DNA of 21,369 bases from Promethearchaeota archaeon (GTDB lineage Archaea > Asgardarchaeota > Lokiarchaeia > Sigyniarchaeales > SOKP01): NCBI GenBank assembly GCA_048941015.1, contig JBHLNZ010000034.1, forward strand, positions 10,725 through 32,093, written 5' to 3'. Of this stretch, positions 1,169 to 17,793 are shown one piece after another; within the stretch, counting starts at the first letter, position 1; every line of letters starts with the position of its first letter. The notes beneath the pieces are model-generated. The model saw nothing but the letters and a program-made list of their open reading frames with translations. It did not search any database and was not told where the DNA came from. Position numbers and translations under genes: made by a program.

Positions 1169-1184
1169 TTTTCAAATCACTCCT

Positions 1185-2195
1185 TTAATCTTCCTCCATC
1201 ATAAATTCTTGTTCATCTTCCATATCAAAAGCCATCATTGGGGGTAAAGTTCCTGGATTGAGACCAGATGTAAAATTAAACCTTTCCTTTGCAATTTTTT
1301 CTAATGATCTTGTTATTAAGTTTAAGTCAATTCCCATTGGACAAACACTACTGCAAGCACCACAACCCACGCATCGTCCTGCCATATGCATTGCTCGAAC
1401 TAAATGAAATACAAATATATCATTATATTCTGTTGTTTTGCCAAACCATATAGGTTTGTTTTGATCTACAAAACATAGATTACAATAACACATAGGACAT
1501 GCTTCTCTACATGCATAACATCGAGTACATGTTTCCAAAAGATTTTTAATATATTCCCATTTTTCTTCAGGGGTTTTTGAATCAAATTCAGTAAGATCTG
1601 AGAAATCATCTTCAATAATAGGATTTTCTAAGCATTCTCCAAGGCAGATATCAGCTACGCTTGGAGGTGATTTAACTTTACATGTTTTACATAATTCGTT
1701 CAAATATTCATCAAAAGGAAATTCTTTTTCAAAATCACTCCCTTTTACTATTATTTTATCTCCTGATACTGAGATCTCAAAGATTTCTCTTTCTCCGATT
1801 TCATCCTCTATTTTTTTTCTATTTATGATTCCATTACAAGGAATTCCTATTATTTTAATATTTTCAAGTTCAATTTGATGTTCTACGGATAGATGAATTA
1901 AAGCTCTCCCTACACATCCTTTTGAAACAATACCAACTTTTAATTTTTTTCCTTCTTCATTAAATAGAGTTGGAATTCGAGGTACCAAATAATTAGCTAA
2001 ATTAATATAACATAAATTATTCCAAATTAATTTGTCTACATCCTCAACTTTATCAATTACTATTGGTGACGAATTTAAGGGGACTGTACCTGTCGTGTAT
2101 CCAATAATCACGTCAACTTGTTTCTCTTCAAGTAACTTTCTAGCTAAATCTCTGATCATCTCTTCAATTTCCTTATTTTGACTTTCAATTTCCAT
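1185..2195 (-). CDS. flxC: FlxC / FdhB-FrhB-like 4Fe-4S protein
   Basis: VDVIIGY, CTRCYACREACPMCYC..C, FHLVRAMHMAGRCVGCGACSSVCPMGI motifs. SD GTGGTGA upstream; lies between mvhD/flxD and flxB. Confidence 0.85.
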   Translation of the reverse strand: MEIESQNKEIEEMIRDLARKLLEEKQVDVIIGYTTGTVPLNSSPIVIDKVEDVDKLIWNNLCYINLANYLVPRIPTLFNEEGKKLKVGIVSKGCVGRALIHLSVEHQIELENIKIIGIPCNGIINRKKIEDEIGEREIFEISVSGDKIIVKGSDFEKEFPFDEYLNELCKTCKVKSPPSVADICLGECLENPIIEDDFSDLTEFDSKTPEEKWEYIKNLLETCTRCYACREACPMCYCNLCFVDQNKPIWFGKTTEYNDIFVFHLVRAMHMAGRCVGCGACSSVCPMGIDLNLITRSLEKIAKERFNFTSGLNPGTLPPMMAFDMEDEQEFMMEED

Positions 2196-2200
2196 TTAAT

Positions 2201-2659
2201 TCACCACGAGGTTTTAAATTGGTTATTTGGTCCTAGATTTTTAATATTCTTGGTTACTTTTTTAACTAAATTTGCAAAACGATCCCCTTCAGATGCAGAA
2301 GACCACATAAATGTGACTCTCTCCGGGTGTATTCCAAAAAGTGTTAATAAATCCTTCAAAATTGCAAAGCGTCTTCGTGCAACTAAATTACCACTGATAT
2401 AATGACAATCACCTGGATGACATCCTGAGACGATAACTCCGTCCCATCCTCTTAACAAACTTTTAATAATGAAAAATGGATTTACTCTACCTGAACATGG
2501 AACCCTTACAATTCTTATATTCGAGGGATATTGGATTCGACTCACACCAGCCAAATCAGCTCCGGCATAGGAGCACCAATTACAAAGAAATGCAATTATT
2601 TTTGGTTCCCACTGTTTTTTATTTTCTGATTGTTTTGATTGTAATTCTGCCTTACTCAT
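2201..2659 (-). CDS. mvhD: MvhD/FlxD 2Fe-2S subunit (methyl-viologen-reducing hydrogenase delta family)
   Basis: FLCNWCSYAGADLAG, RVPCSGRV, GCHPGDCHY..GN and W.SASEG motifs. TAATG overlap with the hdrA stop. Confidence 0.95.
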   Translation of the reverse strand: MSKAELQSKQSENKKQWEPKIIAFLCNWCSYAGADLAGVSRIQYPSNIRIVRVPCSGRVNPFFIIKSLLRGWDGVIVSGCHPGDCHYISGNLVARRRFAILKDLLTLFGIHPERVTFMWSSASEGDRFANLVKKVTKNIKNLGPNNQFKTSW

Positions 2660-4680
2660 TAGAGTTCACCCTCCATAATTATTGAAAATATTTGTTCGCC
2701 TGTAAATCCAATAATGTCAATGGCAGAACATCTACAATTACCAGAACATGCACCACATCCTTTACATAATGCTTGGTTAACAGAGGCTACGGTACCAAAG
2801 CTTCTATCTTCAATTAATTCAATAGCTCCATAGGCACAATTTTCAACACACATCCCACATCCTATACATTGGTCTGGACGTACAACTGCAAAAAATGGTT
2901 CTAATTCGACTTCACCTTTAGCCATTAATGTCGCGGCGCTTGATGCCGCTCCTTTTGCCTGAGCAACAGAATCTGGAATATCTTTTGGACCTTGTGCGAC
3001 TCCAGCTATAAAAATTCCTTCAGTTAAAGTATCAACAGGTCTTAGTTTGGGATGGGCTTCCATGAAAAATCCATCTGATGCTCTTTGAACTCTAACTAAT
3101 GAGGCGACTTTATTCGCATCAGCTCTGGCTTCCAATCCACAAGAAAGAATAAGTAAATCGACTTCATACTCTACTGGTTCTTGAAGTAAAGTATCTTCAG
3201 CTCTAATGATAATTTTATGATCCTCACCCTCTCTGACCTCAGCAATTCTGCCTCTAATATAACTAATCCCATAATTTCTTGCAGCGGATTCATAGAACTC
3301 TTCATATCCTCTCCCAAACGCTCTAATATCCATATAAAATACATATACATCTGCTTCAGGATGTTTCTCCTTATATTGTCGTGCTTGTTTAGTCGCATAC
3401 ATACAACAAACTCTTGAACAATATTGATTACCCCCTTCTCTAAAATTTCTACTTCCAACACATTGAAGGAAGGCGATACTATGGGGTTCTTTAAGATCAG
3501 ATGGTCGTGCAGGTTTTCCAACTAAAGGTCCAGTAGAACTTAGTAAACGTTCCATTTGGAGACCTGTAATAACATTTGGATATCTAGCATATCCATATTG
3601 TTTTAATTCGGTTGGATCGTATAAATCCCAACCAGTCGCAATTATTATAGTTCCTACCTTAACTTTGATATATTCTGGTTCATCATCATATCTAATAGCA
3701 TCAGGCTCACAAACAGTTAACCTAGCACAAATTCCACATTTAATACAATTATCCATATCAATTGTGTATTTACCAGGAACAGCTTGAGGGAAAGGAATAT
3801 ATATTGCCTTTCTTGTAGCTAAACCAAGATCAAATTCATTTGCACAAACAATGGGACAGTGTTCTTCACAAATTCCACAACCAGTACAAGCTTCTTGATC
3901 AACATAATGTGGTTTTTTCTTTATTGTAACTTCAAAATTTCCAACATAACCAGTTATTTCTTCAACTTCTGAATAAGTTAATAACTCAATATTTTCATTT
4001 CTTGCCACATCAACCATTCTGGGAGTTAAAATGCAAGCACTACAATCCATTGTAGGAAAGGTTTTATCTAATTGTGCCATATGCCCTCCGATAGTTGGTG
4101 TTTTTTCAACTAAGTAAACTTTATATCCTTCAGTGGCTAAATCTATAGCGGAATTCATTCCTGCGATCCCACCACCTATTATTAAACAAGCCGGTTCGAT
4201 ACTTACAGTTTTTACTTCAAGTGGTTTTAATTCTCTAGCCTTAGCGACTGACATTTTAATGAGATCTTTTGCCGCTTCAAATGCGCCTTCTGGATCTTTC
4301 ATATGAACCCAAGTCGAATGTTCTCTAATATTTGCTTGTTCAAACAAGAACTGATTTAAACCTGCTTCTTTACAAACTAATCTGAATGTTGGTTCATGCA
4401 TTCTAGGAGAACATGCTGCCACGACAACTCTATTTATTAAACCTGCTTTGATATCTTCCTTAATTATATTCTGACCTGTATCTGAACAAAAAAATTTATA
4501 TTCACGCGCAACTGATACATCCGGTAAGGTTTTAGAATATTCTACTAAATCTGGAACTGAAACAACACCACCTATATTTACGCCACAATGGCAAATATAG
4601 ACTCCAACTTGAGGTTTCTCATTACCGGTAACAATTATTTCTTTTCTAACCTCATTTGTTTCTTTTTTGGCTTCTGTCAT
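2659..4680 (-). CDS. hdrA: Heterodisulfide reductase subunit A (FAD, multi 4Fe-4S, electron bifurcating)
   Basis: GVYICHCGVNI, AACSPRMHE, ANIREH, GGGIAG FAD motif, LDKTFPTMDCSACILTP, QCVGSR..YCSRVCC, HPKLRPV, QGPKDIPDSVAQA and ferredoxin motifs. Confidence 0.97.
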   Translation of the reverse strand: MTEAKKETNEVRKEIIVTGNEKPQVGVYICHCGVNIGGVVSVPDLVEYSKTLPDVSVAREYKFFCSDTGQNIIKEDIKAGLINRVVVAACSPRMHEPTFRLVCKEAGLNQFLFEQANIREHSTWVHMKDPEGAFEAAKDLIKMSVAKARELKPLEVKTVSIEPACLIIGGGIAGMNSAIDLATEGYKVYLVEKTPTIGGHMAQLDKTFPTMDCSACILTPRMVDVARNENIELLTYSEVEEITGYVGNFEVTIKKKPHYVDQEACTGCGICEEHCPIVCANEFDLGLATRKAIYIPFPQAVPGKYTIDMDNCIKCGICARLTVCEPDAIRYDDEPEYIKVKVGTIIIATGWDLYDPTELKQYGYARYPNVITGLQMERLLSSTGPLVGKPARPSDLKEPHSIAFLQCVGSRNFREGGNQYCSRVCCMYATKQARQYKEKHPEADVYVFYMDIRAFGRGYEEFYESAARNYGISYIRGRIAEVREGEDHKIIIRAEDTLLQEPVEYEVDLLILSCGLEARADANKVASLVRVQRASDGFFMEAHPKLRPVDTLTEGIFIAGVAQGPKDIPDSVAQAKGAASSAATLMAKGEVELEPFFAVVRPDQCIGCGMCVENCAYGAIELIEDRSFGTVASVNQALCKGCGACSGNCRCSAIDIIGFTGEQIFSIIMEGEL

Positions 4681-4683
4681 ATG

Positions 4684-5643
4684 CTATACTTCCTCAAACA
4701 ATTGTTCCTTTATATAATTTAAAAAGGGTTCTACTGGAATAAATGGTGAAACTCCAGTTAACTCGTGATTTTTAATCAATCCTAAGCGATTAGGATCAAT
4801 ACCAAATGATAAACCAAGTAATTGAGTGATATAAATAACAGGAATATTAAATGGTTCTCCAATCATATCTTTATAGATGTTATTTGCTTCCATTTGACCT
4901 AGATCTAGTTGTAAATGACAAAATGGACAGCAATCGACAATTATATCAGCACCAGCATCTCTAATATTGGTAAGTTTTTCTCTTGAAAAATCTGCTGATA
5001 CTTCTTTAACTGCTGTTCTGACTGCACCTCCTGCTCCACAACACATAAATTTATCTTGATAATCAATACTCTTTGCTCCAGTTAATTCAACAATTTCATC
5101 AAGAAAAGTTGGACATTCATATTCTCCACCCCAAGGCCTCTTATCGCTTGGTTTAACTATATGACATCCATAATGGACTGCAACTTTAAGATCTTTGAAT
5201 TTATGTTTTACAAAACCCCGCAGATATTCAATTCCCATATCTTGATAAAAAACCTGAACTATATGTTTTGGTTCGATACTTCCTTTAAATTGTCTTCCTA
5301 CTTTCGCAAGGTGTTCATTTACCATTTTCTTTAATTCCGGTTCATGCAGCAATTCATACCAAGCATCTCTTAATGTACCATAACAACCATTACACCCTGT
5401 AATTACATCTACTCCTAACTCTTCGGCAATGGTTAAATTTCTAGCTGCAATTACTAGCCAAGTTGGAATATGAAATGCTCTAAAAACTCCTGGAGCGGGA
5501 CAACATGAAGCTCCTTCTAATTCTAAAATTTCTGCTCCTAAATGTTCGAATACTGCACGAATAGACACTTCAATCTGAGGATATCTATTAGGAGCGACAC
5601 AACCAAGAAAAAAGCCATATCTAAACTTCTTTTCATCAACCAT
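4684..5643 (-). CDS. hdrB: Heterodisulfide reductase subunit B (two CCG domains)
   Basis: FLGC...SCCPAPG...CNGC and HYGCH...CCGAGG...CPFCHLQLD.GQ CCG motifs; IPVIYITQLLGL. Confidence 0.96.
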   Translation of the reverse strand: MVDEKKFRYGFFLGCVAPNRYPQIEVSIRAVFEHLGAEILELEGASCCPAPGVFRAFHIPTWLVIAARNLTIAEELGVDVITGCNGCYGTLRDAWYELLHEPELKKMVNEHLAKVGRQFKGSIEPKHIVQVFYQDMGIEYLRGFVKHKFKDLKVAVHYGCHIVKPSDKRPWGGEYECPTFLDEIVELTGAKSIDYQDKFMCCGAGGAVRTAVKEVSADFSREKLTNIRDAGADIIVDCCPFCHLQLDLGQMEANNIYKDMIGEPFNIPVIYITQLLGLSFGIDPNRLGLIKNHELTGVSPFIPVEPFLNYIKEQLFEEV

Positions 5644-5673
5644 TTTTATCTTCCTACCAATTCTCCTTTCTAT

Positions 5674-6264
5674 TTAGCTTTTCGGCTTCTTTTTTTCTTT
5701 TTCTTTCATTTTTTCTATGTTATCCATTAATTTTCTAAAACCTATTGATTTCATTAATTCTTGACATTCCTTAACTGCTTCAGGATGAGTATGAACTGTA
5801 GGAGGTAATGGTGGTAAACCGACAGATTCTCTTAAATCTCTCCACTTTTTGTTATCCTCGCCAGTAGCGGGAACTCCATGCCCAGTTTCATAAAATATTT
5901 TGTTAGCCAATACAAAATGTGAATCTAAAATATGACCTTCCTCAACAGCAATATTTCTTAATTTGATAATCATATCCGTTACTGGAATATCGCGAGGACA
6001 TCTTTCATAGCAATAATAACATGTACTACAGAGCCATATATCTATATCCTGCAAAACAGATTCATCCCCAGTTAATGCTCGACGAATCGCTGATCGTGTA
6101 CGATATGCAGTTCTTCTTCCTGAAGGACAACTTCCAGTACATGTCCCACAATTAATACATGCTCTAATTTTTTCTAATCCAGCATCAACAAACTTTTGAG
6201 CAATTCTGGAACTAGTAGATTTATAAACTTTTCGTTTAATATATTTTTCTACATTCTCGCTCAT
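5674..6264 (-). CDS. hdrC: Heterodisulfide reductase subunit C (2x 4Fe-4S)
   Basis: CINCGTCTGSCPSGRRT and IWLCSTCYYCYERCPR motifs. ATG at 6264 (MSENVEK) preferred over the track's TTG at 6279. Confidence 0.95.
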   Translation of the reverse strand: MSENVEKYIKRKVYKSTSSRIAQKFVDAGLEKIRACINCGTCTGSCPSGRRTAYRTRSAIRRALTGDESVLQDIDIWLCSTCYYCYERCPRDIPVTDMIIKLRNIAVEEGHILDSHFVLANKIFYETGHGVPATGEDNKKWRDLRESVGLPPLPPTVHTHPEAVKECQELMKSIGFRKLMDNIEKMKEKEKKKPKS

Positions 6265-6279
6265 GGTTATTTCAAACAA

Positions 6280-6365
6280 GTTTAAAATTATAATCTTATG
6301 AAGTGAAAAGTACTTTACATTAAAAAATTTGTTATTGTTAGTTAATAACCGTCTTAGACGTTTAG
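6280..6365 (-). promoter_or_regulatory. Putative hdr-flx operon promoter/operator region
   Basis: TTATAA (6288-6293) lies 24-29 nt upstream of the hdrC ATG. Inverted repeats GTTATT-n7-AATAAC (6331-6349) and CGTCT-T-AGACG (6350-6360). The AT-rich background weakens the call. Confidence 0.35.
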
Positions 6366-6537
6366 GTTAAATATTATATTTTTTAGATTTATAAAGCTAC
6401 TTTATCAATGTTTAAGGTAATTTTAAAGATTAAGATTCAAATTATTAATTTTTAAGCATGAAATCGAAGCACTAATTTAAGTTAAAACTTGCCTTCTATA
6501 AGTTCGAGATTTTAGTAAAAACATTTATAAATTCGTT

Positions 6538-6906
6538 TTGAATATGATATTTGGAATCCGAATTAATTTAGCGTGGAAGTTAAAATTGAGTGAAAATTCT
6601 AAAATTACTAACAAAAACATTGAAAATAAGAAAAAGAAATTCGAAGCTTTAACTTCAGATAAAATTAAACAAATTCTAGAGTTGAAAAAAGGATTTGAAA
6701 CGATAGATAAACAAGAAAGGAATAAGGACAAAATAATTGAAATATTAAGGGAAGAAATTACCTTAATTGGTCACATGAATCAAAAAGTTATAGAAGAAAA
6801 AGATAGAATTATTCATGAACTTAAAGCTCTTATAAAAGATAAGAATGAGAAAATTGAACAGTTAACAAAATTATTAAAAAGAGAGACAAATCTTCCTTTT
6901 GTTTAA
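6538..6906 (+). CDS. Hypothetical coiled-coil protein
   Basis: K/E-rich ORF with heptad pattern (I..L.EEI..I...NQ..IEEKDRIIHELKALIKDKNEKIEQLTKLL). True start may be TTG at 6586, after GTGGAAG. Confidence 0.65.
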   Translation: MNMIFGIRINLAWKLKLSENSKITNKNIENKKKKFEALTSDKIKQILELKKGFETIDKQERNKDKIIEILREEITLIGHMNQKVIEEKDRIIHELKALIKDKNEKIEQLTKLLKRETNLPFV

Positions 6907-6921
6907 ACAACTCATCAATAA

Positions 6922-7143
6922 TTAGGATTTGTTTTCTGCTAGTTCTTCTAAATATTTTATTTGTTTCTCTTCTGACAAAAATGCTAATTCTTTTTTAATT
7001 TTTTCCAAGTCTTTTTCAGAAAAATCTAACTTTAAGAGCTTCTCCCTTACTTCCTTAGAGAGAACATTAAAAATTCGAGCAAAATATTTTTTAACAATTT
7101 CTACTTTCTCAAAATCATTATTATCATCTATTATAAAAACCAC
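6922..7143 (-). CDS. Small hypothetical helical protein (73 aa)
   Basis: GTG start and K/E/L-rich amphipathic helices, convergent with 6538..6906. An in-frame TAA seven codons upstream rules out a longer N-terminus. Confidence 0.6.
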   Translation of the reverse strand: MVFIIDDNNDFEKVEIVKKYFARIFNVLSKEVREKLLKLDFSEKDLEKIKKELAFLSEEKQIKYLEELAENKS

Positions 7144-7557
7144 CGATTCTTTTTCAGAAAATTATATAGTATTATAATTTTATTTTCATCTTATTGTTTA
7201 AATAATACAATGAAGCTCATCTTCTTAAGAAATTCGGAGTCCAATTTTTAAAAGATTTCTCTATAAAAATTGAATAATTTAATTAATTTATGAAGTCTAA
7301 GAGACAAAATGTTTTTGTCGGAATGAATTCGATAAAAATTATCTTCTTTTAATAAAAGTAAGTTATAAATATCGACATAATCCTAAAATCCGTCAAAGTC
7401 ATAACTAGAATAAAATTAATCATCTTAAAATGAGATTTTCCTTTTTTTCAAATTACTAAATTGAAAATCCGTTTATTTATATATAGGTTCTAAGATTACT
7501 ATGTTAGCTCATTAACATTTAGTTATTGACAAAGGGTTCTGGTATTAGAGGAGACGT

Positions 7558-7812
7558 ATGGGTCTTAATTTTGATGATTATAAGGAAATAAAGAAAGAGT
7601 TCAAGCATAAACTTAGGTGGTTTGAAGAAGAATTCGATTTAATCTTCCAAGGTAAAACACATAATTATTCTAGAGAGGATACTAAACTCGCTAATAAATT
7701 ATTAGACAAACTATCGGAAACCATCAATGAATATAAGGATGAAAAACTTCTCTATCATTTAGTTTCTACCTTAAACAATATTGAAAGAAAGCATCCTGAA
7801 TTCTTTCCATAA
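7558..7812 (+). CDS. Small hypothetical helical protein (84 aa)
   Basis: ATG with clear AGAGGAG SD; upstream TTTATATATA box near 7476-7486; protein-like composition. Confidence 0.75.
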   Translation: MGLNFDDYKEIKKEFKHKLRWFEEEFDLIFQGKTHNYSREDTKLANKLLDKLSETINEYKDEKLLYHLVSTLNNIERKHPEFFP

Positions 7813-7869
7813 GGAATATTATTTAAAATTGACGATATAACTTATTTATATAGAATTTAATTTATTTTT

Positions 7870-8262
7870 TTAAAAAAAGGGTCCAAATTTTTCATAAACT
7901 CGTATTAAATTCTCACGATAAAATTTAAACTTCTCTTCTTGGGGATTTAAAATAACTGCCTTTTCAATTGTTTCTTCTGCGAGTTTCTTGTGTCCTTTAT
8001 CTAAATAGGTTATAGTTAATAAGCCCCAAGCTTCTAATAAAGCATTATTTAATTCAACTGCAGCAGTGAAATATTTTAAAGACTCATCTAACCTTCCAAC
8101 ACGCCGCTTAGCGATACCCAGTAGAAGCCAAGCTTGATCATTAGAAGGATCTTGATCTATCAGCTTAGTAAGATATTTAATAGCTTTAGTATTTTTTCCC
8201 TTGAGCAACAATTCATTAGCAGGGATAAGTGTACTTTCCAATTCTGAAATCTCTAACTGCAT
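7870..8262 (-). CDS. Tetratricopeptide repeat (TPR) protein
   Basis: About three TPR units: A..YL.K.I..DP.N..AW.LLG.....G...E....F..A.ELN....EAW..L...Y...G....A......A..LNP. Confidence 0.85.
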   Translation of the reverse strand: MQLEISELESTLIPANELLLKGKNTKAIKYLTKLIDQDPSNDQAWLLLGIAKRRVGRLDESLKYFTAAVELNNALLEAWGLLTITYLDKGHKKLAEETIEKAVILNPQEEKFKFYRENLIRVYEKFGPFF

Positions 8263-8669
8263 AAGAATCGATAATAATCTCTCTTTATATACTAGTTATC
8301 ACATTACCCTTATATATTTTTAATTTTTTCAAAAATTATTTAAGAATATTGAAAATAATTTGAAAATCTTAAATTTATTTACAACTATAGCTAATTATTA
8401 AAATATTGTTAGATAATTGCTAATTTTAGGCTTTTCCTTTTTTTCCTGTTATATTTGAGAAATTATAATTGCTAATCAGAGGCTCCTTAAGAATTAAATA
8501 TTGCTTTAACAGTAGTGTCAAGTTTCACGAAAAAGTGCTTTAAACAATAAATTTTAAATATTTAAAAACAGATATCTTAACTAACTCTTATACCATAACT
8601 ATAGCATAATTTTTTCTTTATATATTAGAAATATATTCCTATAAAAATAATTAGGAAAGAAGGATAAGG

Positions 8670-9962
8670 TTGGTCTCTGAAAGTTTAACCATACATAAAA
8701 AACCAGTTATAAGTATTGATCACTTCTTAAATCAATACGAAGATGTTATGGAATCTGGGTTAGAAACATTATTAAACTTAGATTTTAAGTTAAAGAAGAA
8801 AAGATCATCTGACAAAATTATAACTAACCTAAGAATTGCTGAGCCAGCTGATTCTGAAAAAATTGCTAATCTTTTCAAAGAAGTATACCATAGTACATAT
8901 CCATTTAAAAATATGGAAGATCCTGAGGAAATATCCTTATTAATGGAAGAAAATAAAGTGAGATGGGTTTTATTTATTTCAAATAATGAAGAAATCGCGG
9001 GTTGTTTTGGTGCAAATTTAGTATTTGAAAGAAAAATTGGACTACTTTATGGTTTTATTATACGTAAAAAGTATCGCCATATTGTTGATTCATTAAAGGC
9101 ATTTACTGGTTCGCTAATTTATTTTTGGAATAATTATAGAAACAAAATCCCTATTTGGATAGGTGAAGTCCGTACAAATAATCCTACTCCTCAATTTGCT
9201 ACATCATTATGCGGTTTAAAACCAATAGCATTTTATCCTAACAAAGATATTTTTTTTGGAAAATACGAATCTGAATTTCTCCATATTGCATATTCTGATA
9301 ATATTTTAAATCAATATCGCAAGAAAGAATCGCCAAAAATTATCTTACCTGTTATTCGAGGTTTTGCTTACGCTCAAAAAAGATATAATTTAACTTTCCC
9401 CAAACTAGTTGAAGAATTTTCCTTTACAAACTTAGTAAATTATAAATTTGAAGATGAGCGTATAAATTCAGTCGAAGTAGCTAGATTAAAGAGAAAAGTA
9501 TCAATTGAAATAACGAAAGATAAATATAAAAATGAAGATATTACCCTTTCATTGGATTCTGCTTTCTTTCATTTTAGATATAATCCCCATAGTAAATCGA
9601 TAGAAAAAACAAAATATAATATATCTTATCCAGAACAATTGCAAGCTTTCCTATTACATTTAAGAGAAATTATTTTTAAAAAAAGAGTTAATTACTTTCA
9701 ATGTTTTGTATCTGCTTATAAACCTATTGAACAAAGGTTATTTTATAATATGAAATTTAAACCTAATGGATACATTCCTTGTTGGAAGTATAATAAAAAG
9801 AATAATTACTTTGAGGATGCTATAATTTTTAATTATAGTCGTACAGAAATTAACGAAAATATTAAATTAATTCCAGAAACTAGAGAATTATTAGAGGTAT
9901 TGGGTTACTATGGTGAAGTTAAAAGTAATGGGTTTTTAGAACAATTTCTTTCATATCAATAA
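8670..9962 (+). CDS. GNAT-family (tandem GNAT fold) N-acyltransferase
   Basis: LRIAEPADSEKIANLFKEVYHSTYPF start, IAGC strand, IIRKKYRH motif A and GEVRT..P.PQ....CGLKP. A second, degenerate GNAT at the C-terminus (QRLFYNMKFKPNGYIP...EDAIIF). TTG start after a purine-rich SD-like tract. Confidence 0.7.
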   Translation: MVSESLTIHKKPVISIDHFLNQYEDVMESGLETLLNLDFKLKKKRSSDKIITNLRIAEPADSEKIANLFKEVYHSTYPFKNMEDPEEISLLMEENKVRWVLFISNNEEIAGCFGANLVFERKIGLLYGFIIRKKYRHIVDSLKAFTGSLIYFWNNYRNKIPIWIGEVRTNNPTPQFATSLCGLKPIAFYPNKDIFFGKYESEFLHIAYSDNILNQYRKKESPKIILPVIRGFAYAQKRYNLTFPKLVEEFSFTNLVNYKFEDERINSVEVARLKRKVSIEITKDKYKNEDITLSLDSAFFHFRYNPHSKSIEKTKYNISYPEQLQAFLLHLREIIFKKRVNYFQCFVSAYKPIEQRLFYNMKFKPNGYIPCWKYNKKNNYFEDAIIFNYSRTEINENIKLIPETRELLEVLGYYGEVKSNGFLEQFLSYQ

Positions 9963-10027
9963 CCTATTTTATTAATCAATAAAGAATTTTAATTATTTTT
10001 TTAAAAAATTAATTCATAAAAGAGGAG

Positions 10028-10882
10028 TTGTTTAAGTTTAAAAAAAGAGAAAATTGGACTGAAAGTTATATTTCACAAATTCAAAGGAATATAGGCCTTT
10101 TTAATCGTGAAGAACAAGAAAAAATACGTACTACTAAAATTGCCATCTTAGGTTTAGGAGGAATAGGGGGATCTACAGCAGAACAACTCATAAGAACTGG
10201 TTGTGAACAATTCATATTATGCGATAATGAGAAGTTTGAAGTTTCTAATCTGAACAGGCAACTCTGCACTATAGAAGATCTTAATAAATATAAAGTAGAT
10301 GTAATTGAAAATCGCTTAAAAAAAGTTAATCCCCAAGCTAATATTCAATCGTTTTATAATATTGATGAAAAAAATATTTCTGATATTTTAAATGGAGTAA
10401 AAATAGTTGCTTTATGTTTAGATGGTCCTATTGCGTCAATATTAATTGCAAGAGAAAGTTTAAAAAGAGATATACCAATTATTGAATCTTATGCCATACC
10501 TTATGTATGGACTTGGTGGTTCACCTCTGATAGTATAGATTATGAGACATGTTATCATCTTTCAACTCATAAATTATCAATATCTGAAATAGAAAAGTCA
10601 TCCAATTTCAAAAACAAGTTTAAAGAAGGGATGCTATCTATTCTATTGAAATTTCCAAATATAAGTAAAACCTATTCTAGAGAACCAAATATATTAGATG
10701 CTGTTATAAGAGGACAACACCCTTTGGTCTCAATAGCTCCAATTGTTCGACTTACAGCCTCTTTTCTTAGCTTTGATTTATTATATTCTGGCATCTTAAA
10801 GATTAAGAAAATGAATTTAGCTCCCAGCATTATAGGTTATGATTATTTAAGAATGAAAGAAATAAAAGTAGAACTTTTCTGA
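10028..10882 (+). CDS. ThiF/E1-like adenylyltransferase (PRK08223-like subfamily)
   Basis: RNIG....EQ, GLGGIGG nucleotide-binding loop, D...FEVSNLNRQ, KYKV, ..LD. No CxxC zinc motifs. C-terminal half resembles the PRK08223 type (F....DYE...S.AP.....A...AP....YD). Confidence 0.88.
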   Translation: MFKFKKRENWTESYISQIQRNIGLFNREEQEKIRTTKIAILGLGGIGGSTAEQLIRTGCEQFILCDNEKFEVSNLNRQLCTIEDLNKYKVDVIENRLKKVNPQANIQSFYNIDEKNISDILNGVKIVALCLDGPIASILIARESLKRDIPIIESYAIPYVWTWWFTSDSIDYETCYHLSTHKLSISEIEKSSNFKNKFKEGMLSILLKFPNISKTYSREPNILDAVIRGQHPLVSIAPIVRLTASFLSFDLLYSGILKIKKMNLAPSIIGYDYLRMKEIKVELF

Positions 10883-10940
10883 ATTATTCTAGAAAGAAGT
10901 AGATAAAAATAAGAAAAAGAAAGTACAAATAAAAAATATT

Positions 10941-11948
10941 ATGAATATTAGAACTATTAGCAATTTAAGTTTAATTTTAAAATATCTTCAATTAGGAACT
11001 ACGATTCCGATAACTCCGGAGTTCCATAAATATATTATTTCTGATCTACAATTTTATAATGCAAAATCACTAATTATACTTGACAATAATAAAAATCCAA
11101 TTGGTCACGTTTTAGTATTTAATGATGAATCAAATATTCTCTATTTTGGGTATTTTGGAGTTCATAATCATAATGTAAAAGGAATTGAATTTTTATTAGA
11201 AGAGATAAAAAATTTTGCTATAAATAATGGATTTAAAAAAATAAAAGGGCCAATCAATATTCCCACTGTTTTATATGGGTGGGGTTTTATGGAAGAAGGT
11301 AGTTCTACGTCCCTATTCGTAGGGAAACCGGTAAATCCTCCAATTTATAACAAAATTCTATTGAAGAAAGGCTATTTGATCTCCACGAAATTTCATTCTT
11401 ATGAAGGTTATTTTACACAAATTACAGAAGACATGTTAGAAAAGTATGATTACAGTGAATATGAAATATATATCCCAGAAACTTGGGGTGAAATTGTTAA
11501 ATTAAAAAATGATTATTTGAGTCTAAATGCTCGTAATTTAATGCCAGAGGATACAGTTACTCCAAGCGTTGCAAAACGTTTTGAAAATTACCTTCAATTT
11601 ATTAAAGACTTTGGAGAGCCTTCTATGTTCGTATTTTTGCGCTATAAGAAGAATAATAAGTTAATAGGTTGCTTTACTTCACTTCCTAATCCTTTTAGAA
11701 AAGATAATCAAGGTAAATATGATTCCTTCGTAGCTTTTACACTAGTTTTAGATAAAAAATATAGAGATAAAGGTTTGGGATTATTACTTACAAAACATAC
11801 TTTAGATGCTGCTGTTAAACGCCATAACTTATACGTCCTTACTCCTATTGAAGAAAGCAAAGTAAAGACTATATATTTCTCAGTAGAAAAAGGAAAAATC
11901 TCCCTTTCGCGAATGCATTCAATTTTTGAACTTGATTTATTAGATTAA
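10941..11948 (+). CDS. YghO / bacterial ceramide synthase (bCerS)-like tandem GNAT N-acyltransferase
   Basis: YFGYF....LL......G...IKGPIN......GFMEEG.......P.NPPIY..IL...GY signature, plus a C-terminal GNAT motif A (LDKKYRDKGLG). Confidence 0.75.
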   Translation: MNIRTISNLSLILKYLQLGTTIPITPEFHKYIISDLQFYNAKSLIILDNNKNPIGHVLVFNDESNILYFGYFGVHNHNVKGIEFLLEEIKNFAINNGFKKIKGPINIPTVLYGWGFMEEGSSTSLFVGKPVNPPIYNKILLKKGYLISTKFHSYEGYFTQITEDMLEKYDYSEYEIYIPETWGEIVKLKNDYLSLNARNLMPEDTVTPSVAKRFENYLQFIKDFGEPSMFVFLRYKKNNKLIGCFTSLPNPFRKDNQGKYDSFVAFTLVLDKKYRDKGLGLLLTKHTLDAAVKRHNLYVLTPIEESKVKTIYFSVEKGKISLSRMHSIFELDLLD

Positions 11949-12085
11949 AGATATAATTTTTTAAGGTAATGAATTATTACTCGATAAAAATATCAATGGT
12001 ATATTGTCAATCATACTAATGTTTTAAATATGTAAAGTCTTATACCTAATAGTAAGCAATTCAAAAATATATTTAAACAAATTTT

Positions 12086-12850
12086 ATGTCCCTACTAATT
12101 TTATTTCAAATCGTTGAAGATTGGCCTCGAATTCTCCCCATATTTGTTACCCAGCCCTTTATCTCAGTGATGTTTATAATTCTCGCGTATAAAGTTTTGA
12201 AAAGAAAAGTAGATAGGATTTCTCTTAGTTTAGGTGCTTTTTATATTATTTTAGGAATAGGGTTTGTATTAAATATAGTTTATTTAGTTTTTACCTTAAT
12301 ATCGAACGAACCATTATTATTGTATATCCTTTATTATTTAACTATTTACCCAATTATGTTCTCAACCGTATTTATCGTATTATTTATTAATATTCTTTTA
12401 AGATATGAAGCGGAGCTCCCATTGAAACCGTATATACTTTATGTTTTAGTATACGGCGTGTGTTCTGCATTAATTATAATATTTCCAGGGGGAATTACGT
12501 TAAATCCAGAAAATTCTTGGGCTCCAGAATATAATTGGGAATTTCTTATATTTATTTATCTCTTCTTTACAATATCAATTACAGTTCCGATAATTTTTTA
12601 CTCAAATCGGTTATACAAACATTTTCAAGCAAGAAATTTGAAAGGTAGATTAAGATTAATTATTATTGCTGTTATTGAATTATTAATTTTGTTTTATGGC
12701 GTAGTCTTATTTAATACTTGGCCCCAATATTTACAATATTTAAACGAAATATTGGTACCAATCTTTAAAACCATTTGGGGGCTTTTTTCTGCTATCCTTG
12801 TTATTTCTTCAGCATTATTGTTATATTATAGTTTAGGAAGAAATTTGTAA
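12086..12850 (+). CDS. Stand-alone 7-TM integral membrane protein (HisKA_7TM-like sensor domain)
   Basis: Seven hydrophobic stretches with basic inside loops (KVLKRK, RLYKHFQARNLKGRLR) and an extracellular W.P.Y.W loop; no cytoplasmic output domain. Confidence 0.7.
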   Translation: MSLLILFQIVEDWPRILPIFVTQPFISVMFIILAYKVLKRKVDRISLSLGAFYIILGIGFVLNIVYLVFTLISNEPLLLYILYYLTIYPIMFSTVFIVLFINILLRYEAELPLKPYILYVLVYGVCSALIIIFPGGITLNPENSWAPEYNWEFLIFIYLFFTISITVPIIFYSNRLYKHFQARNLKGRLRLIIIAVIELLILFYGVVLFNTWPQYLQYLNEILVPIFKTIWGLFSAILVISSALLLYYSLGRNL

Positions 12851-13020
12851 ATCTAATTCTAATTCTTTATTCTAAAATTTTTAGGATTCAAGAAAGATGA
12901 TTATTTATTTAAGGAAAGAAAAAGAGAGAATAATTATAAATTATAAATACAAATTGAAATATAAAGTGTATTAAATTTGGTTTTAAATAATTGATTTAAA
13001 CCTTCATATGTTGTATAATT

Positions 13021-14526
13021 ATGGGATCTCAAAATAAAATTCTTTTTGTACAAATTTATGCTTGTGAAGGAATAGGCTCTGAATTTCTTTATCGACGCCC
13101 TTCTGATTATAAACAAATGCTTAATAAGACTTATCCTGACATAAGAAAATGGTTGAATGATGAAACTTTTAATCAACTCAAAGATTGGCCAGATGGTGTA
13201 AATATTAGATTTGAAGTTGATGATGTTAATCTTCAAGGAAGATTTCTAGCAGCAAATATTGATACACCTTCCCATGTTATTGACAAACCTGTTAATCCAG
13301 AATCCTTAATTTCCGAACTAGGAAGAGATAATTACACTCATGTTGGATTTTCCGTCATTTCGAATGACTATTCAAATTTTATAAAATGTTCTCAAGCTGT
13401 AAAAAAATATGATAGTTCTATTAAAACTATTGCTGGAGGTCCTGGGGCTATGTTTGAACAAACAAAAAATTATGTCGACTATATATGCATGGGAGAACGG
13501 GGGGAATTTTTTCTTCGTAAACTATTTCATGAAGATTTAAATAATCCGATTAAATTTATTATCATCCCAAATAAAATATATTGGAGGTATAATAATCGAG
13601 AGTTACCTACTGAACTTTATAGAGTAATTACTAAGCTTGGATGTCCATTATCGTGTGATTTTTGCACTACTCCTGTTTTATATAATAGAAAATATACTGG
13701 TGAATTATTCAGTCCCCAGTATGTTCATGATATTTTGGTAGATTTTCGTGATCAATTAAAAAAAGAGAAAATGACTATTTATTTCGAAGAACCAACGTCA
13801 CTTTATTCTTTAGATTGGTGGTATGAATTCATCAATCTTTTTAGAGAAGATTATGGCGACTTTGCTTTATATTTATACAGTATAACATCAATTTTAAATA
13901 AATTAAATCTAGATAAAATATCCAACTCTGCTGCTCGAATTAATTTGGTAAATTTTGGAATTGAAAACTTTAATAAAAGTTATCCGAAGAATTTAAATGT
14001 TGATTTAAAAGTTTTGATAAAAAAATTATCTGACTACGGAATTTGGACAAATCCTAATTATATAATAGGGTATGACTTTGATTCCAAAGAAAGTGTATGG
14101 AATGATATAAAGAAGTTGATAGATTTAGACGCGGATGTAAACACTATTCTCCATTTGCATCCACATCCCAGAACAGAAATTTGGAAAAAGTTAGAAAAAG
14201 AAAAAAGATTATTAGATGTTCCTCCTGAATTTCATTTTATTCATGGATTTCAATCATTTAAACATCCTAGCTTTAAACCAGGATTCGAGGATATGCTTCC
14301 CTTATTATGCAATATTTATAATTACATTGAAAAAGAAATTGGAGACAAATTAATAAATATTATTAGAACTATGAAAAATTTATTAAACCATACAAATCAT
14401 GCGAGTATTATTAAACGTGAGATTCTATTATATAAATCGTTTGGAAAAATATTATACCCACAATGGAAGCAATTTTTTAATCCAAGTGAAGCCCAAGACG
14501 CTAATTTTCAAAAGAAATTAAAATAA
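13021..14526 (+). CDS. Cobalamin-binding (class B type) radical SAM protein
   Basis: B12-binding Rossmann segment VGFS...TIAGGPGA..DYICMGERGE, followed by GCPLSCDFC (CxxxCxxC), FGIE, YIIGYD.D and P.P.T. Confidence 0.88.
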   Translation: MGSQNKILFVQIYACEGIGSEFLYRRPSDYKQMLNKTYPDIRKWLNDETFNQLKDWPDGVNIRFEVDDVNLQGRFLAANIDTPSHVIDKPVNPESLISELGRDNYTHVGFSVISNDYSNFIKCSQAVKKYDSSIKTIAGGPGAMFEQTKNYVDYICMGERGEFFLRKLFHEDLNNPIKFIIIPNKIYWRYNNRELPTELYRVITKLGCPLSCDFCTTPVLYNRKYTGELFSPQYVHDILVDFRDQLKKEKMTIYFEEPTSLYSLDWWYEFINLFREDYGDFALYLYSITSILNKLNLDKISNSAARINLVNFGIENFNKSYPKNLNVDLKVLIKKLSDYGIWTNPNYIIGYDFDSKESVWNDIKKLIDLDADVNTILHLHPHPRTEIWKKLEKEKRLLDVPPEFHFIHGFQSFKHPSFKPGFEDMLPLLCNIYNYIEKEIGDKLINIIRTMKNLLNHTNHASIIKREILLYKSFGKILYPQWKQFFNPSEAQDANFQKKLK

Positions 14527-14562
14527 TATCATTTTATTTCAACATCTAAGAAAATATAAATT

Positions 14563-17500
14563 TTATATTAGAGGTAAAGAAAAATAAAAAGTACTTCCTT
14601 TATTCCTTCCCTTTGATTCAGCCCAAATTTTTCCATCATGAAGTTCAATAATCTCTTTTGATATGTACAAACCTAAACCCGTACCTTCGATTCCAATATC
14701 CCATCCTTGGCCATATCGTTCAATTTTTCCGAATTGAGTAAAAAGTTGCTTTTTCTCTTCATTGGTAAGCCCGATGCCGGTATCATTTACAGAAATTATG
14801 TATGAATCATTTTTAATTTGAGATTCAATAGTTATTACTCCTCCTTTAGGAGTATATTTAATTGCATTAATCAATAAATTTGAAATTACTTCTTCTATTT
14901 TTTCCTTATCAAAAAGGGTAATTAGATCTTTTTCAACTTTATTGAGTATTGTTTGATTATGTAATTTTGCCTTTCCTTCCAAAGATTTAATTGAATCTCG
15001 TATAATAGAATATAGATCTTCTTCCTTTTTGTTTAATTTCATTAAGCCTTGTTCTACTTTTGAGCCTTCTACAATTTTATTGATATAATCTTCGAGTCGT
15101 TTACTCCCATCCATTATTTCATTGAGAATGGATTTAATTTCTTCATCTAATTTATTCGCATGGAGTTTTAACAATAATTCAGTAAAGCCTTTAATAGATA
15201 TTAGAGGTGTTTTTAATTCATGAGATGTTCTTGAAAATAGGTCAGTTTTTAATCGATTTATTTCGCTTAATTCTTGTGCTTGTTGTTCAAGGTGTTGCTG
15301 TACTTGCCATCGTCTCTGTTCAATTTCTATGGCATCGCATATTAAAAATAGCACTAATTTATCTTGATTTGTAATTAAAGGATTTTCAGGATATAAAACA
15401 CACATCATATCATTGAGTTCATTTTGTGACATGACAAGCTTTCCATAGAGCGCTTTGATATTATTTTCTTTTATGAATTTATCATGTTTAGACCTTTCAA
15501 TTGTATTAATATCATAAAAAATCTGAGGAAAATCGTGATTTTCCTTGAATAATTCACTTATATAGAAATTATTCATGAATTCCGAAATAGGAAGTGTTAT
15601 AACTTCACCTTCGCTTGTCATTAATCTGAATTGCTCCTTCCCATCGAGCTCTAATTTATTTGCATATATTGCAATTTTTCCGTTTAAAAGTTTTAAGCTA
15701 GTTTTTAGGAGTAGTTCAATGTTTTTTCGAGTGTCTGTTGAGAAGTTAAGGAAGTTGATATTTAACTCATAAATTAATTCCTCATACATTTTTTTCTCAG
15801 TAATGTCTTCTAACCATAATCGAAATCCGATTGGTTCGCCAACCTCGTTATATTGGTTCCAACGACGTCCATGAAGCCATTTTAATTTTTCATCTTTAGT
15901 GACAATTCTAAATTCTAGATCTTTATCTTCCGAGGATTTTAATACCTTGTTTAAATCATCTGGATGAATAATGTTTTGAATAAATTTACTTCCTAGAGAT
16001 TCTGCTTCATAATAACCGGTAATTTCTAAAAGTTTATGATTGATAAAAGTTACTTCCATATTTTCGATATTTATTTCTAGTATGCCAACTGTAGAGGTAT
16101 CTAATAAATTACGATATTTTTCTTCAGAATCTTTTAATCTCTCTTCAGCTTTTATACGTTCAGTAATATTGGTAATTACTCCATCATAACTTATAATGTT
16201 ACCATTATTATCAAGTATAGGGACTCCATGATCCCGCAAATAAAATTCTTGTCCGGTATCTTTATGTATAACTCTATATTCGATAATGAATTCCACTTTT
16301 TTAATAGCAGCTTCATTATAAGCTTTAAGAGTATTTTCTCGATCATCTGGGTGGATAGAATCTTTCCATAATTCAGGATTATTGTACATCTCTTCGGGAT
16401 TGTATCCCGTCCATTCTTCCCATTTGCTTGAAACAAATAATGTACTACTTATTTCGTCTGGTAATGAGGAGTAAATAACATCAGGTATATTTTCGATAAG
16501 TGTTTTATATTTTAATTCTGATAATTTTAACTTTTGCTCTGCTTCTTTTTTTTCAGTAATATCTTGTGCGATTGCTTGAAAAAAAGTTCTTTCGGCTAAT
16601 TTTATCAAGGATAACTGGGCATTAACCCAAGCATAAGTTCCGTCTTTTTTATAAACCTGAAATTCTGTTGGTTCAATTTCTCTTCCCTTATATAAATCTC
16701 TTAACTTTTTATTTAAAATAGAGAATATTTCTGGTGGGAATAGGGGTAGGTCTTCATATGTTTTACCTATATATTCCCCTTTTTTATAACCAAATAACTT
16801 TTCAGTGGTAGAATTATAATCTATAATTTTTCCATCTATATCGAATAATAATATTGCAAATGGTGAGCTTTCGATTAAATTTCTATATTTCTTTTCTGAT
16901 TCTTTTAAGTTTTCTTCTGATTTCTTTCGTTCTGTAACATCTTCAAAAGTTACAAGAATTCCTACTACGTTTTCATCAGAATCATAAAGAGGGATTCTAT
17001 TTATTTGAACCCATATTTTCTTTCCATCTCTCAGAGCCCATGATTCTATAACATTAAATTCGGCTTTATCAGAATCAATTAAGTCTCTTTCCTTTTTTTG
17101 ATTATAAAGTATTTGTTGATTATCATAGAGTAGATCTTTATCCTTTTTATTGATTATATTCTCAGGATATTCAGCTCCGATCAAATTAGCATAATTATTG
17201 TTGCATCCAAGATAATTTAAATCATTATCCTTCCAATAAACATATTGAGGGATATTTTCCATAACAGTTTGAAGCATTTCGTAAGAGCTTTGTAATGCTT
17301 CTTCATATTTTTTTGGATTAAAAAGTTTCCAAAATCGTATTTCAGGAATTGATTCGGTAATTTTTTTAAATCTTTCTTCCCCGATTTTCAATTCTTCTTC
17401 AATTTTTTTTCTCTTTGAAATATCTTTAAAGATTATCAGAATCTTTTTTTCATTTAATTCATTCTTGAATTTTTTTGTCTTAATTTCTGTCCATATGATT

Positions 17501-17793
17501 TCTCCTGTAGAATTTTTTAATCTTATTTCTTGAATTCGATCTATATGGTCAATTTCTTTTTTAAAACTTTTAATAGTCTTTTTATAATCTTCAGGATAAA
17601 TAATATTTGTAATACTCTTTCCAATCAGGTCCTTATAAGCATATCCTAGCTTTTCTAAAAATGAATTTCTGTTTATTTGTTCGATTTTATAATTTGCTGT
17701 CGGTTCAACAACCGCGACTAAATCATCTATCGAGTCCATGAAAAACTTGAACTGAGCCTCAAGATTTTCGAAATCTTTTTGATCTAGAATCAT
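14563..17793 (-). CDS. Soluble multi-PAS (5x) / GAF-like sensor histidine kinase
   Basis: Five PAS/PAC units ending D(I/V)(T/S).(R/K)K or NITERIK; H-box SHELKTPL, N-box NLLINAIKYT, G1 DTGIG, G2 GTGLGL, GSTFYF. No TM segments and no receiver domain. Confidence 0.95.
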   Translation of the reverse strand: MILDQKDFENLEAQFKFFMDSIDDLVAVVEPTANYKIEQINRNSFLEKLGYAYKDLIGKSITNIIYPEDYKKTIKSFKKEIDHIDRIQEIRLKNSTGEIIWTEIKTKKFKNELNEKKILIIFKDISKRKKIEEELKIGEERFKKITESIPEIRFWKLFNPKKYEEALQSSYEMLQTVMENIPQYVYWKDNDLNYLGCNNNYANLIGAEYPENIINKKDKDLLYDNQQILYNQKKERDLIDSDKAEFNVIESWALRDGKKIWVQINRIPLYDSDENVVGILVTFEDVTERKKSEENLKESEKKYRNLIESSPFAILLFDIDGKIIDYNSTTEKLFGYKKGEYIGKTYEDLPLFPPEIFSILNKKLRDLYKGREIEPTEFQVYKKDGTYAWVNAQLSLIKLAERTFFQAIAQDITEKKEAEQKLKLSELKYKTLIENIPDVIYSSLPDEISSTLFVSSKWEEWTGYNPEEMYNNPELWKDSIHPDDRENTLKAYNEAAIKKVEFIIEYRVIHKDTGQEFYLRDHGVPILDNNGNIISYDGVITNITERIKAEERLKDSEEKYRNLLDTSTVGILEINIENMEVTFINHKLLEITGYYEAESLGSKFIQNIIHPDDLNKVLKSSEDKDLEFRIVTKDEKLKWLHGRRWNQYNEVGEPIGFRLWLEDITEKKMYEELIYELNINFLNFSTDTRKNIELLLKTSLKLLNGKIAIYANKLELDGKEQFRLMTSEGEVITLPISEFMNNFYISELFKENHDFPQIFYDINTIERSKHDKFIKENNIKALYGKLVMSQNELNDMMCVLYPENPLITNQDKLVLFLICDAIEIEQRRWQVQQHLEQQAQELSEINRLKTDLFSRTSHELKTPLISIKGFTELLLKLHANKLDEEIKSILNEIMDGSKRLEDYINKIVEGSKVEQGLMKLNKKEEDLYSIIRDSIKSLEGKAKLHNQTILNKVEKDLITLFDKEKIEEVISNLLINAIKYTPKGGVITIESQIKNDSYIISVNDTGIGLTNEEKKQLFTQFGKIERYGQGWDIGIEGTGLGLYISKEIIELHDGKIWAESKGRNKGSTFYFSLPLI

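Follow-up and report, generated by a model that had tools for sequence, protein, structure and literature searches.

A conserved module of tandem GNATs and a ThiF-type adenylase in Lokiarchaeia, a candidate for acyl-amide biosynthesis

The window analysed here, a stretch of 21,369 nucleotides from contig JBHLNZ010000034.1 (positions 10,725 to 32,093; contig C84 below) of a Promethearchaeota archaeon belonging to Lokiarchaeia, carries a conserved gene module which encodes two tandem GNAT proteins (P1 and P3), a ThiF-type enzyme (P2) and a polytopic membrane protein (P4). The genome has a size of 3.59 Mb and is 95% complete, and the G+C content of the window is 25-35%. The module is restricted to one archaeal lineage and might carry out a lineage-specific, membrane-associated biosynthesis of a small acyl-amide metabolite, either lipid-like or a signal, a reading to which we give an even chance. 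The genes of P1, P2 and P3 are co-oriented on the plus strand and separated by intergenic gaps of 65 and 58 bp, as had been described in an earlier note made from the sequence alone. Structural models and the PF00899 match also bore out its view of two acyltransferase folds around an E1-like adenylase, although it had missed that each GNAT is in fact a double one. The three-gene unit of the same note is real and conserved but larger than it had supposed, the fourth member P4 having been overlooked, and the trio does recur in other genomes of this archaeal family, a point on which the note had invited a check.

Among 61 related genomes, the P1 family was found in 52, P3 in 42, P4 in 43 and the P2-type ThiF (counted at E < 1e-30) in 31. 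Within one Lokiarchaeales family, clusters of the module genes were found at more than 30 loci, with varying gene order and in two paralogous layouts. The first layout, group A (P1, ThiF, P3 and P4), is present in at least 12 genomes of the genus according to the 20 loci fetched around P1 matches, and shows the orders P1-P2-P3-P4, P1-P3-P2-P4 or P1-P2-P4-P3, or has a part inverted, while a few loci are without ThiF. The second, group B, occupies at least 14 further loci, including one on contig C43 of the same genome; here ThiF is divergent from the P1 homologue (P1B), which is followed by a membrane protein of ~190 amino acids (aa; 4-5 transmembrane segments) or another gene, and then by a P3 homologue of ~390 aa (P3B). 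Of the 43 P2-type ThiF genes, 35 have a P1 or P3 homologue within ~2.5 kb; three of the others are 43-50 kb from one on the same contig, and the rest are on other, mostly short contigs. Moreover, P1 and P3 are fused to a single protein of 748-752 aa in two independent assemblies, with a P4 gene following, and at least 15 P1 clusters carry a DUF998 membrane domain fused at the C-terminus. These gene fusions provide independent support for the functional linkage of the module, and the gene arrangement as a whole is far beyond chance.

The distribution across the phylum was assessed in a draw of 201 genomes, in which P1 (E <= 1e-10) was present in 34 of 40 genomes of the window's family, two of three genomes of the sister family and one other genome, and in 0 of 156 genomes of 24 other families. 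More distant Lokiarchaeia, including a single-contig genome of 6.04 Mb (G055), possess an adjacent P1-P3 pair without ThiF or P4. By this distribution, P1 and P3 form an old core, to which ThiF is a frequent, tightly linked and facultative addition.

The group-B loci carry further genes. On contig C43 (L049, 6814-16236), P1B, an opposite-strand ThiF, a 389-aa protein with a weak match to PP-loop ATPases and a 388-aa P3B were found, and two tandem P4-like genes are located ~3 kb beyond P3B. Other loci of this group (L071, L072, L074, L069 and L073) variably contain B12-binding radical SAM proteins (560-570 aa each), an MFS transporter and an M20 peptidase, a gene content that resembles a small biosynthetic gene cluster.

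P2 matched PF00899 with an E-value of 1.1e-33 and 116.8 bits (cut-off 28.1), which places it in the ThiF/E1-like superfamily. In an alignment of 28 P2 orthologues, all sequences have G42-x-G-G-x-G47, D66, N76-R77-Q78 and K89, and at least 90% of them have D132; because these adenylation residues are kept, P2 is probably an intact adenylating enzyme. The CxxC zinc motifs are absent from this alignment; the one frequent cysteine, C175, is present in 24 of the 28 orthologues and is not invariant. The ThiF domain begins at about residue 19, and there is no N-terminal peptide-clamp (RRE) domain. The best NCBIfam model for P2 is PRK08223 (NF006077), with 97.3 bits against a cut-off of 266 and over residues 13-179 only, and membership was rejected because the score is below the curated family cut-off. 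The remaining models also scored below their cut-offs (bits/cut-off: ThiF PRK08644 94/159, PRK14851 78/1170, MoeB 65/266, TcdA 45/304, UbaA 41/450, Rv1355c (TrzS) 41/476). As well, an assignment of P2 to TcdA, MoeB, ThiF (ThiS) or UbaA was rejected on account of these scores, the lack of CxxC pairs and a separate position in the phylogeny. Seven further ThiF-family matches, of which six are full-length, are encoded in the same genome, and every one of them outscores P2 on PF00899.

In a FastTree phylogeny of a limited set of sequences, the 28 P2-type proteins formed one clade, which was sister (Shimodaira-Hasegawa (SH)-like support 0.999) to a ThiF from a Shinella plasmid and two ThiFs from a B. 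cereus plasmid. E. coli TcdA was the next branch outside P2 and these bacterial stand-alone ThiFs (SH 0.84), while E. coli MoeB, E. coli ThiF and the genome's six other paralogues were on the other side of the tree. The best sequence match of P2 in the PDB is 9egc/9egb; a literature search found no paper on these entries, and a search for PRK08223 returned nothing. The two ThiFs of the B. cereus plasmid (NZ_CP085499.1, L098, 6136-10807), members of the clade sister to P2, are encoded side by side, and after them come genes for a DUF441 membrane protein, an alpha/beta hydrolase and a 2-isopropylmalate synthase homologue.

P3 matched PF00583 over residues 215-297 with 32 bits (cut-off 20.7). Its structural model (pLDDT 95.9) is a tandem GNAT, with Z-scores of 22.9 to 7q3a, 21.6 to 5kf1 and 20.1 to MshD, and the tandem GNATs of MshD, glucosamine-N-acetyltransferase and MAB_4324 type matched it with Z 20-23 over 265-291 residues. 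The matches to NMT, Fem and MprF folds were clearly lower (Z 13-16), and an NMT-like (Z 14.5) or Fem-like (FemA/X, Z 15-16) protein was rejected as the primary match in comparison with the 20-23 of the MshD type. The C-terminal domain of P3 keeps the acyl-coenzyme A (CoA) loop R/Q275-x-K-G278-L-(G/S/T/A)280, and P3 thus combines a GNAT superfamily fold with the loop that goes with it. Among 48 sequences, 44 have R and 4 have Q at position 275, 39 have G278, and 39 carry G, S, T or A at 280. Conservation within the P3 family is highest in a motif of the N-terminal domain, G103-P-x-N-x-P ... G-x-G-F ... P-x-N ... Y136.

The relationship of P3 to E. coli YghO was followed by profile comparison with hhalign. 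P3 aligned with P3B (98.6%, E 6e-16, 320 columns), and both aligned with the profile of a GNAT from a bacterial operon described below (P3: 95.2%, E 2.7e-8, 290 columns; P3B: 97.4%), which in turn aligned with YghO (99.9%, E 1e-34). P3B also matched YghO directly (hhalign 92%, E 6.6e-7; pairwise BLASTP 1e-7). The match of P3 to an E. coli-only YghO profile was weak (E 0.007), that profile being shallow, with homologues all at least 79% identical among the matches listed, and the GNATs of the bacterial operon gave a broader one. On these profile comparisons P3 appears to be a distant, near full-length relative of the YghO family, the kinship being clear only through P3B or the broader bacterial profile. 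P3 and P3B share with YghO and "bCerS-like" tandem GNATs the two domains and the N-terminal motif G-P-(I/F)-N ... G-x-x-x-E-G ... P ... Y. Pfam, NCBIfam and the PDB contain no YghO entry by which membership could be defined, and bCerS itself may belong to the YghO-type family, going by its InterPro placement. No serine palmitoyltransferase-type gene was seen beside the module. The MshD-type enzymes (mycothiol synthase, C. acetobutylicum glucosamine N-acetyltransferase, MAB_4324 and clavulanate CBG) are the best fold match of P3 and likewise have the acyl-CoA loop in the C-terminal domain and a degenerate N-terminal domain. However, P3 is only 8-17% identical to them in sequence, and no pairing of any of them with a ThiF enzyme or another tandem GNAT is known.

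P1 has no Pfam family and no Pfam GNAT match. Its AlphaFold model (pLDDT 89.4) contains two GNAT-like domains with fold matches up to Z ~11, including Z 10-11 of the N-terminal domain to RimI, SpeG and Naa10 and Z 10.6-10.7 of the tandem to 7q3a and 2wpw, so that P1 is predicted to have the GNAT fold. The canonical acyl-CoA loop Q/R-x-x-G-x-G/A (motif A) is missing from both domains. In its place, the N-terminal domain has a basic loop, K/R-K/R-K-Y-Q/R-x-x-x-D, and the C-terminal domain a loop of 3 residues without glycines. In addition, 22 residues are invariant across 51 P1 homologues, and Y73, Y77, R168, N191, E200, Y342, Q355 and D383 are kept even in homologues at E ~1e-23. Because of these conserved residues, P1 looks like an enzyme or a specific binder and not like a decayed duplicate.

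Two distant P1-like tandem GNATs, P0285 (L088, 334-5255) and P0289 (L091, 6001-11017), which match at E ~1e-23 and keep 12 of the 22 invariant residues, are each encoded by the first gene of an operon with LuxE (acyl-protein synthetase) and a LuxC/AMP-binding fusion. One of the two operons adjoins genes for a type I polyketide synthase, a phosphopantetheinyl transferase and an asparagine synthase, while the gene contexts of four other distant homologues (P0250, P0288, P0290 and P0243) were uninformative. Since the CoA loop is missing and distant homologues are found beside LuxE and LuxC/AMP-binding genes, the partner of P1 may be an adenylating enzyme rather than CoA.

P4 is the conserved fourth member of the module and adjoins P1, P2 or P3 in 16 of the fetched loci. 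It has no Pfam match (E up to 1) and no NCBIfam family. A DUF998 (PF06197) identity was rejected, as hhalign against the C-terminal domains of 15 P1-DUF998 fusions gave 0.05% and an E-value of 0.85. A membrane partner is always present in some form, as P4, as the ~190-aa membrane protein or as the fused DUF998 domain. Language-model look-alikes of P4 include a cluster named "histidine kinase N-terminal 7TM region" (score 0.96; 7TM, seven-transmembrane), and PF16927 (HisKA_7TM) matched nothing in the whole genome at E up to 1, P4 included. The P4-type 7TM family is expanded to 1-8 copies per genome in the genus, and many copies form tandem pairs at a distance from the module. Every P4 homologue in the 61 genomes searched stands alone, without fusion to a kinase or any other domain.

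The combination of an acyltransferase and a ThiF-type enzyme is known from bacteria. The oxazolone pathway starts with an N-acyl amino acid, the product of an acyl-CoA-dependent N-acyltransferase. Its carboxylate is adenylated by a ThiF-like enzyme, which also closes the ring, and a flavin oxidase of the nitroreductase superfamily, together with O2, desaturates the ring to give tyrazolones or tryptazolones (bioRxiv 10.1101/2020.06.11.147165; PMC10404671; PMC12856293; review PMC12596934). The described systems are OxzAB of Pseudoalteromonas rubra and TyzACB and TrzAS of Mycobacterium tuberculosis. They share with the archaeal module an N-acyltransferase gene beside a ThiF-family gene; TyzB (318 aa), like P2, is a stand-alone ThiF-family protein of about 300 aa, and a membrane protein gene, mmpL9, neighbours tyz (PMC10404671). 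Unlike P3, OxzA, TyzA and TrzA are single-domain acyltransferases similar to acyl-homoserine lactone synthases and FeeM, and all known systems have a flavin oxidase, fused or adjacent, whereas the archaeal module has none and instead possesses a second tandem GNAT (P1) and a dedicated 7TM protein.

A closer bacterial counterpart was found by tblastn of P2 against plasmids, which led to the ThiF of the Shinella plasmid (NZ_OZ000535.1, L099, 5051-10145). This operon encodes, in order, a 314-aa protein, the ThiF, a 400-aa membrane protein, a 367-aa YghO-type GNAT (E 3.5e-35 to a YghO hidden Markov model) and a 332-aa Acg-family flavin mononucleotide (FMN) oxidoreductase (138.8 bits). The best NCBIfam model of its ThiF is also PRK08223 (116.9 bits). 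Further matches of the oxidoreductase are to the oxidase portions of the Rv1355c (TrzS) family and of PRK14851; PRK14851 is thereby confirmed as a ThiF-oxidase fusion. The five-gene operon is complete in 62 of 80 species-level genomes, mostly Alphaproteobacteria (loci L100-L179), and its carriers include Shinella, Ensifer, Mesorhizobium, Bosea, Bradyrhizobium, Devosia, Sphingomonas and Caulobacter. It may represent an uncharacterised split oxazolone-type cluster, in which a YghO-type acyltransferase replaces the OxzA type.

As to the archaeal module, the ThiF of this operon belongs to the clade nearest to P2, its GNAT shows homology to P3 along almost the entire length, and a polytopic membrane protein is encoded between the two. 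On the other hand, the operon has an FMN oxidase and the 314-aa protein, both lacking in the archaeal module, and occurs in a bacterial host; its membrane protein is unrelated to P4, and a kinship of P1 with its 314-aa protein, 400-aa protein or GNAT was rejected (all by hhalign), and it has no P1 homologue. Because the operon pairs a homologous ThiF and YghO-type GNAT with an oxazolone-type FMN oxidase, the analogy of the archaeal module with OxzAB, TyzACB and TrzAS is better founded than before.

According to these comparisons, a sequence of reactions can be proposed, in which the substrates, the acyl chain length, the order of the steps, the role of P1 and the product are what we infer. P3 would use acyl-CoA to N-acylate an amine that bears a carboxylate, most simply an amino acid, and P2 would then adenylate the carboxylate of this product with ATP. 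The activated species might be the acyl-adenylate or, after cyclisation as in OxzB, TyzB and TrzS, a saturated 5(4H)-oxazolone, which would stay undesaturated, the O2-dependent flavin oxidase being absent. P1, as the obligate partner of P3, would bind an acceptor and catalyse the transfer onto a second amine or hydroxyl. Finally, the membrane partner (P4, the ~190-aa protein or the DUF998 domain) may receive, insert, export or sense the product.

The interpretation in the earlier note is thereby partly supported. Its analogy with OxzAB and a YghO-like character of P3, as distant homology, are upheld, and the ThiF does not group with TcdA, MoeB or UbaA, a grouping which by the note's own terms would have told against its proposal. 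The label "PRK08223-type" had to be given up. The suggestion that one GNAT acylates and the second makes another amide is only one option for a P1 without the canonical CoA-binding loop, and ThiF as a pathway step is facultative, as P1 and P3 also occur without it. The long-chain acyl group, the amino-acid acceptor and the product named there stay putative, as does an equivalence of P3 to bCerS.

Several points weigh against an acyl-amide pathway of this kind. ThiF is missing from some loci and from most of the other Lokiarchaeia that keep P1 and P3, and because the pair occurs without it, the core reaction can do without ThiF; the many P1-P3 pairs without a linked ThiF likewise weaken the idea of an adenylating partner for P1. 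The place given to P1 in the pathway is a guess, and P1 might be non-catalytic or use another donor such as aminoacyl-tRNA. As the nearest solved folds of P3 (5kf1 and MshD) acetylate amino sugars, P3 may transfer a short acyl group, with a sugar as its acceptor. Sugar-related genes also flank the Shinella operon. The ThiF phylogeny was built without the sequences of OxzB, TyzB and TrzS. Moreover, no nitroreductase or Acg-family gene was found on the module-bearing contigs C84 and C43 or in ~40 loci inspected, and a known oxazolone end-product is not expected because neither contig has the flavin oxidase. For strict anaerobes, the lack of an O2-dependent oxidase is sensible.

The strongest rival, which we nonetheless consider unlikely, is the tailoring of a glycoconjugate. 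In that case P3, perhaps with P1, would N-acylate an amino sugar on a lipid-linked or surface glycan, ThiF would adenylate the carboxylate of a sugar acid (uronic or nonulosonic) to give an amide or lactam, and the membrane protein would handle the lipid-linked substrate. Such a role is consistent with the fold matches of P3 to the glucosamine N-acetyltransferase 5kf1, to the fungal glucosamine N-acetyltransferase region 4zm6 and to MshD, with the membrane partner in every module variant, and with the genes for a GT4 glycosyltransferase, a nucleotide-sugar dehydrogenase and a methyltransferase that flank the Shinella operon. However, the ~40 archaeal loci inspected showed no glycosyltransferase, sugar-nucleotide or flippase gene in linkage with the modules, and the oxidase of the bacterial operon is of the oxazolone-pathway type. 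We also know of no ThiF-family enzyme that acts on sugar acids. None is listed in the review PMC12596934. In favour of the glycan reading, LuxC/LuxE-type genes, like those beside the distant P1 homologues, are reported from flagellin glycosylation islands (PMC7874193).

Modification of a protein or peptide is a distinctly unlikely alternative, in which ThiF would adenylate the C-terminus or a side chain of a peptide or ubiquitin-like (Ubl) protein as in E1, MccB or PaaA, the GNATs would acylate or immunise as in systems of ribosomally synthesised and post-translationally modified peptides (RiPPs) or of microcin-C-like type, and the membrane protein would export. In RiPP pathways, GNATs, exporters and peptidases are frequent partners of ThiF-like enzymes (PMC12596934), and group-B loci sometimes contain MFS transporter, M20 peptidase and B12-radical SAM genes. 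P2, though, has neither the RRE domain nor the CxxC zinc site, its C175 is not invariant, and it lies outside the clade of MoeB, ThiF and Uba-like proteins. Precursor-peptide and Ubl small open reading frames (ORFs) were looked for in and beside the module and none was found, nor was a beta-grasp gene or a conserved small ORF. The N-terminal domain of P1 resembles the N-terminal protein acetyltransferases RimI, Naa10/Ard1 and Naa50 (Z 10-11), but Z-scores of this size are generic for GNATs.

A signalling loop, in which a diffusible acyl-amide is made by the module, sensed by P4 as a stand-alone 7TM receptor and relayed by the adjacent multi-PAS histidine kinase, is in our view improbable. It would fit the histidine-kinase look-alikes, the expansion of the P4 family and the position of the kinase gene, which is convergent with the module in every orthologous group-A locus, the P1-P3 fusion locus (L066) among them. 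The paralogous loci, however, lack this neighbour; as it is limited to orthologous, syntenic loci, it may be an inherited neighbourhood. Furthermore, the PF16927 search and the absence of any Pfam or NCBIfam family for P4 argue against the receptor, as do P4 homologues that are never fused to a kinase in the 61 genomes searched. Least of all do we expect a tRNA or nucleotide modification by a TcdA-like cyclodehydratase with acetyltransferases acting on a modified nucleoside, since, despite TcdA being the nearest characterised outgroup of P2 and the bacterial stand-alone ThiFs and despite the conserved basic loop at the CoA-loop position of P1, the TcdA model scores far below its cut-off on P2, a tRNA enzyme would not be expected to have steady membrane partners or DUF998 fusions, and the module is multi-copy, lineage-restricted and facultative, unlike core tRNA modification.

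The features of the module and of its immediate surroundings are listed in Table 1.

Table 1. Module genes, the following B12-binding radical SAM gene and the upstream region, in window coordinates.
Feature	Position	Strand	Description
Upstream region of P1	8263-8669		407 bp, AT-rich, intergenic; presumed promoter region
P1	8670-9962	+	430 aa, tandem GNAT; N-terminal GNAT domain ~50-215, C-terminal GNAT-like domain ~265-395 (predicted)
P2	10028-10882	+	284 aa, stand-alone ThiF/E1-like adenylyltransferase; PF00899
P3	10941-11948	+	335 aa, tandem GNAT, MshD / glucosamine N-acetyltransferase architecture; PF00583 in C-terminal half
P4	12086-12850	+	254 aa, polytopic membrane protein (~7 transmembrane segments); 137 bp after P3
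P5	13021-14526	+	501 aa, B12-binding radical SAM; 170 bp after P4; PF02310 and PF04055 both below Pfam cut-offs

The region upstream of P1 was presumed to hold the promoter of the module. An ORF scan found in it no ORF of at least 40 aa except one that overlaps the end of a TPR gene, and an Rfam scan of 6000-15000, the upstream region included, found no RNA family. A conserved 84-aa ORF upstream, ending in ...EFFP, is confined to the syntenic neighbourhood.

Downstream, P5 is possibly an accessory tailoring enzyme, only weakly attached to the module, and its orthologue was found beside the module in only one other genome (L036, 76% identity). P5 was rejected as an orthologue of the B12-binding radical SAM genes of group B, as there was no BLASTP match at 1e-3. 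Because these proteins are not orthologous, the B12-binding radical SAM genes near the modules are a recurring gene type and not one gene.

The module is flanked by unrelated housekeeping genes. Upstream, a cluster similar to HdrABC/MvhD is located on the minus strand (110-6279), which encodes an HdrA-like FAD/FeS protein of 673 aa, MvhD (FlpD), an HdrB-like CCG-domain protein, an HdrC-like 4Fe-4S protein and two more Fer4 proteins, and is 75-94% identical across the genus. On the other side are the multi-PAS HisKA/HATPase histidine kinase (1076 aa; 14563-17793, minus strand) and genes of CysE and CysK type together with a class-V aminotransferase; the hexapeptide-repeat, CysE-like acetyltransferase (19301-20146, plus strand) adjoins the PALP (CysK-like) enzyme and the aminotransferase.

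In its boldest form, the acyl-amide reading would have Lokiarchaeia-type Asgard archaea make an unseen class of acyl-amides, such as an anaerobic, non-desaturated N-acyl oxazolone or an N-acyl-aminoacyl amide, by a machine of two tandem GNATs and a ThiF, with the expanded 7TM protein P4 as a receptor feeding the PAS kinase. This is speculative and we regard it as a long shot; if true, the closest prokaryotic relatives of eukaryotes would possess a chemical signalling system complete in itself. The alphaproteobacterial operon looks like a new split form of the oxazolone pathway, which can be tested in culturable bacteria. Archaeal membranes consist of isoprenoid ethers, and to our knowledge acyl-amide lipids or signals are essentially undescribed in archaea. 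The module is a variation on the theme of an acyltransferase with a ThiF adenylase, found in an archaeal lineage without known chemistry of this kind, and, because it pairs acyl-CoA-type transferases with an ATP-dependent carboxylate-activating enzyme, it offers a concrete, testable candidate for acyl-amide chemistry in these archaea.

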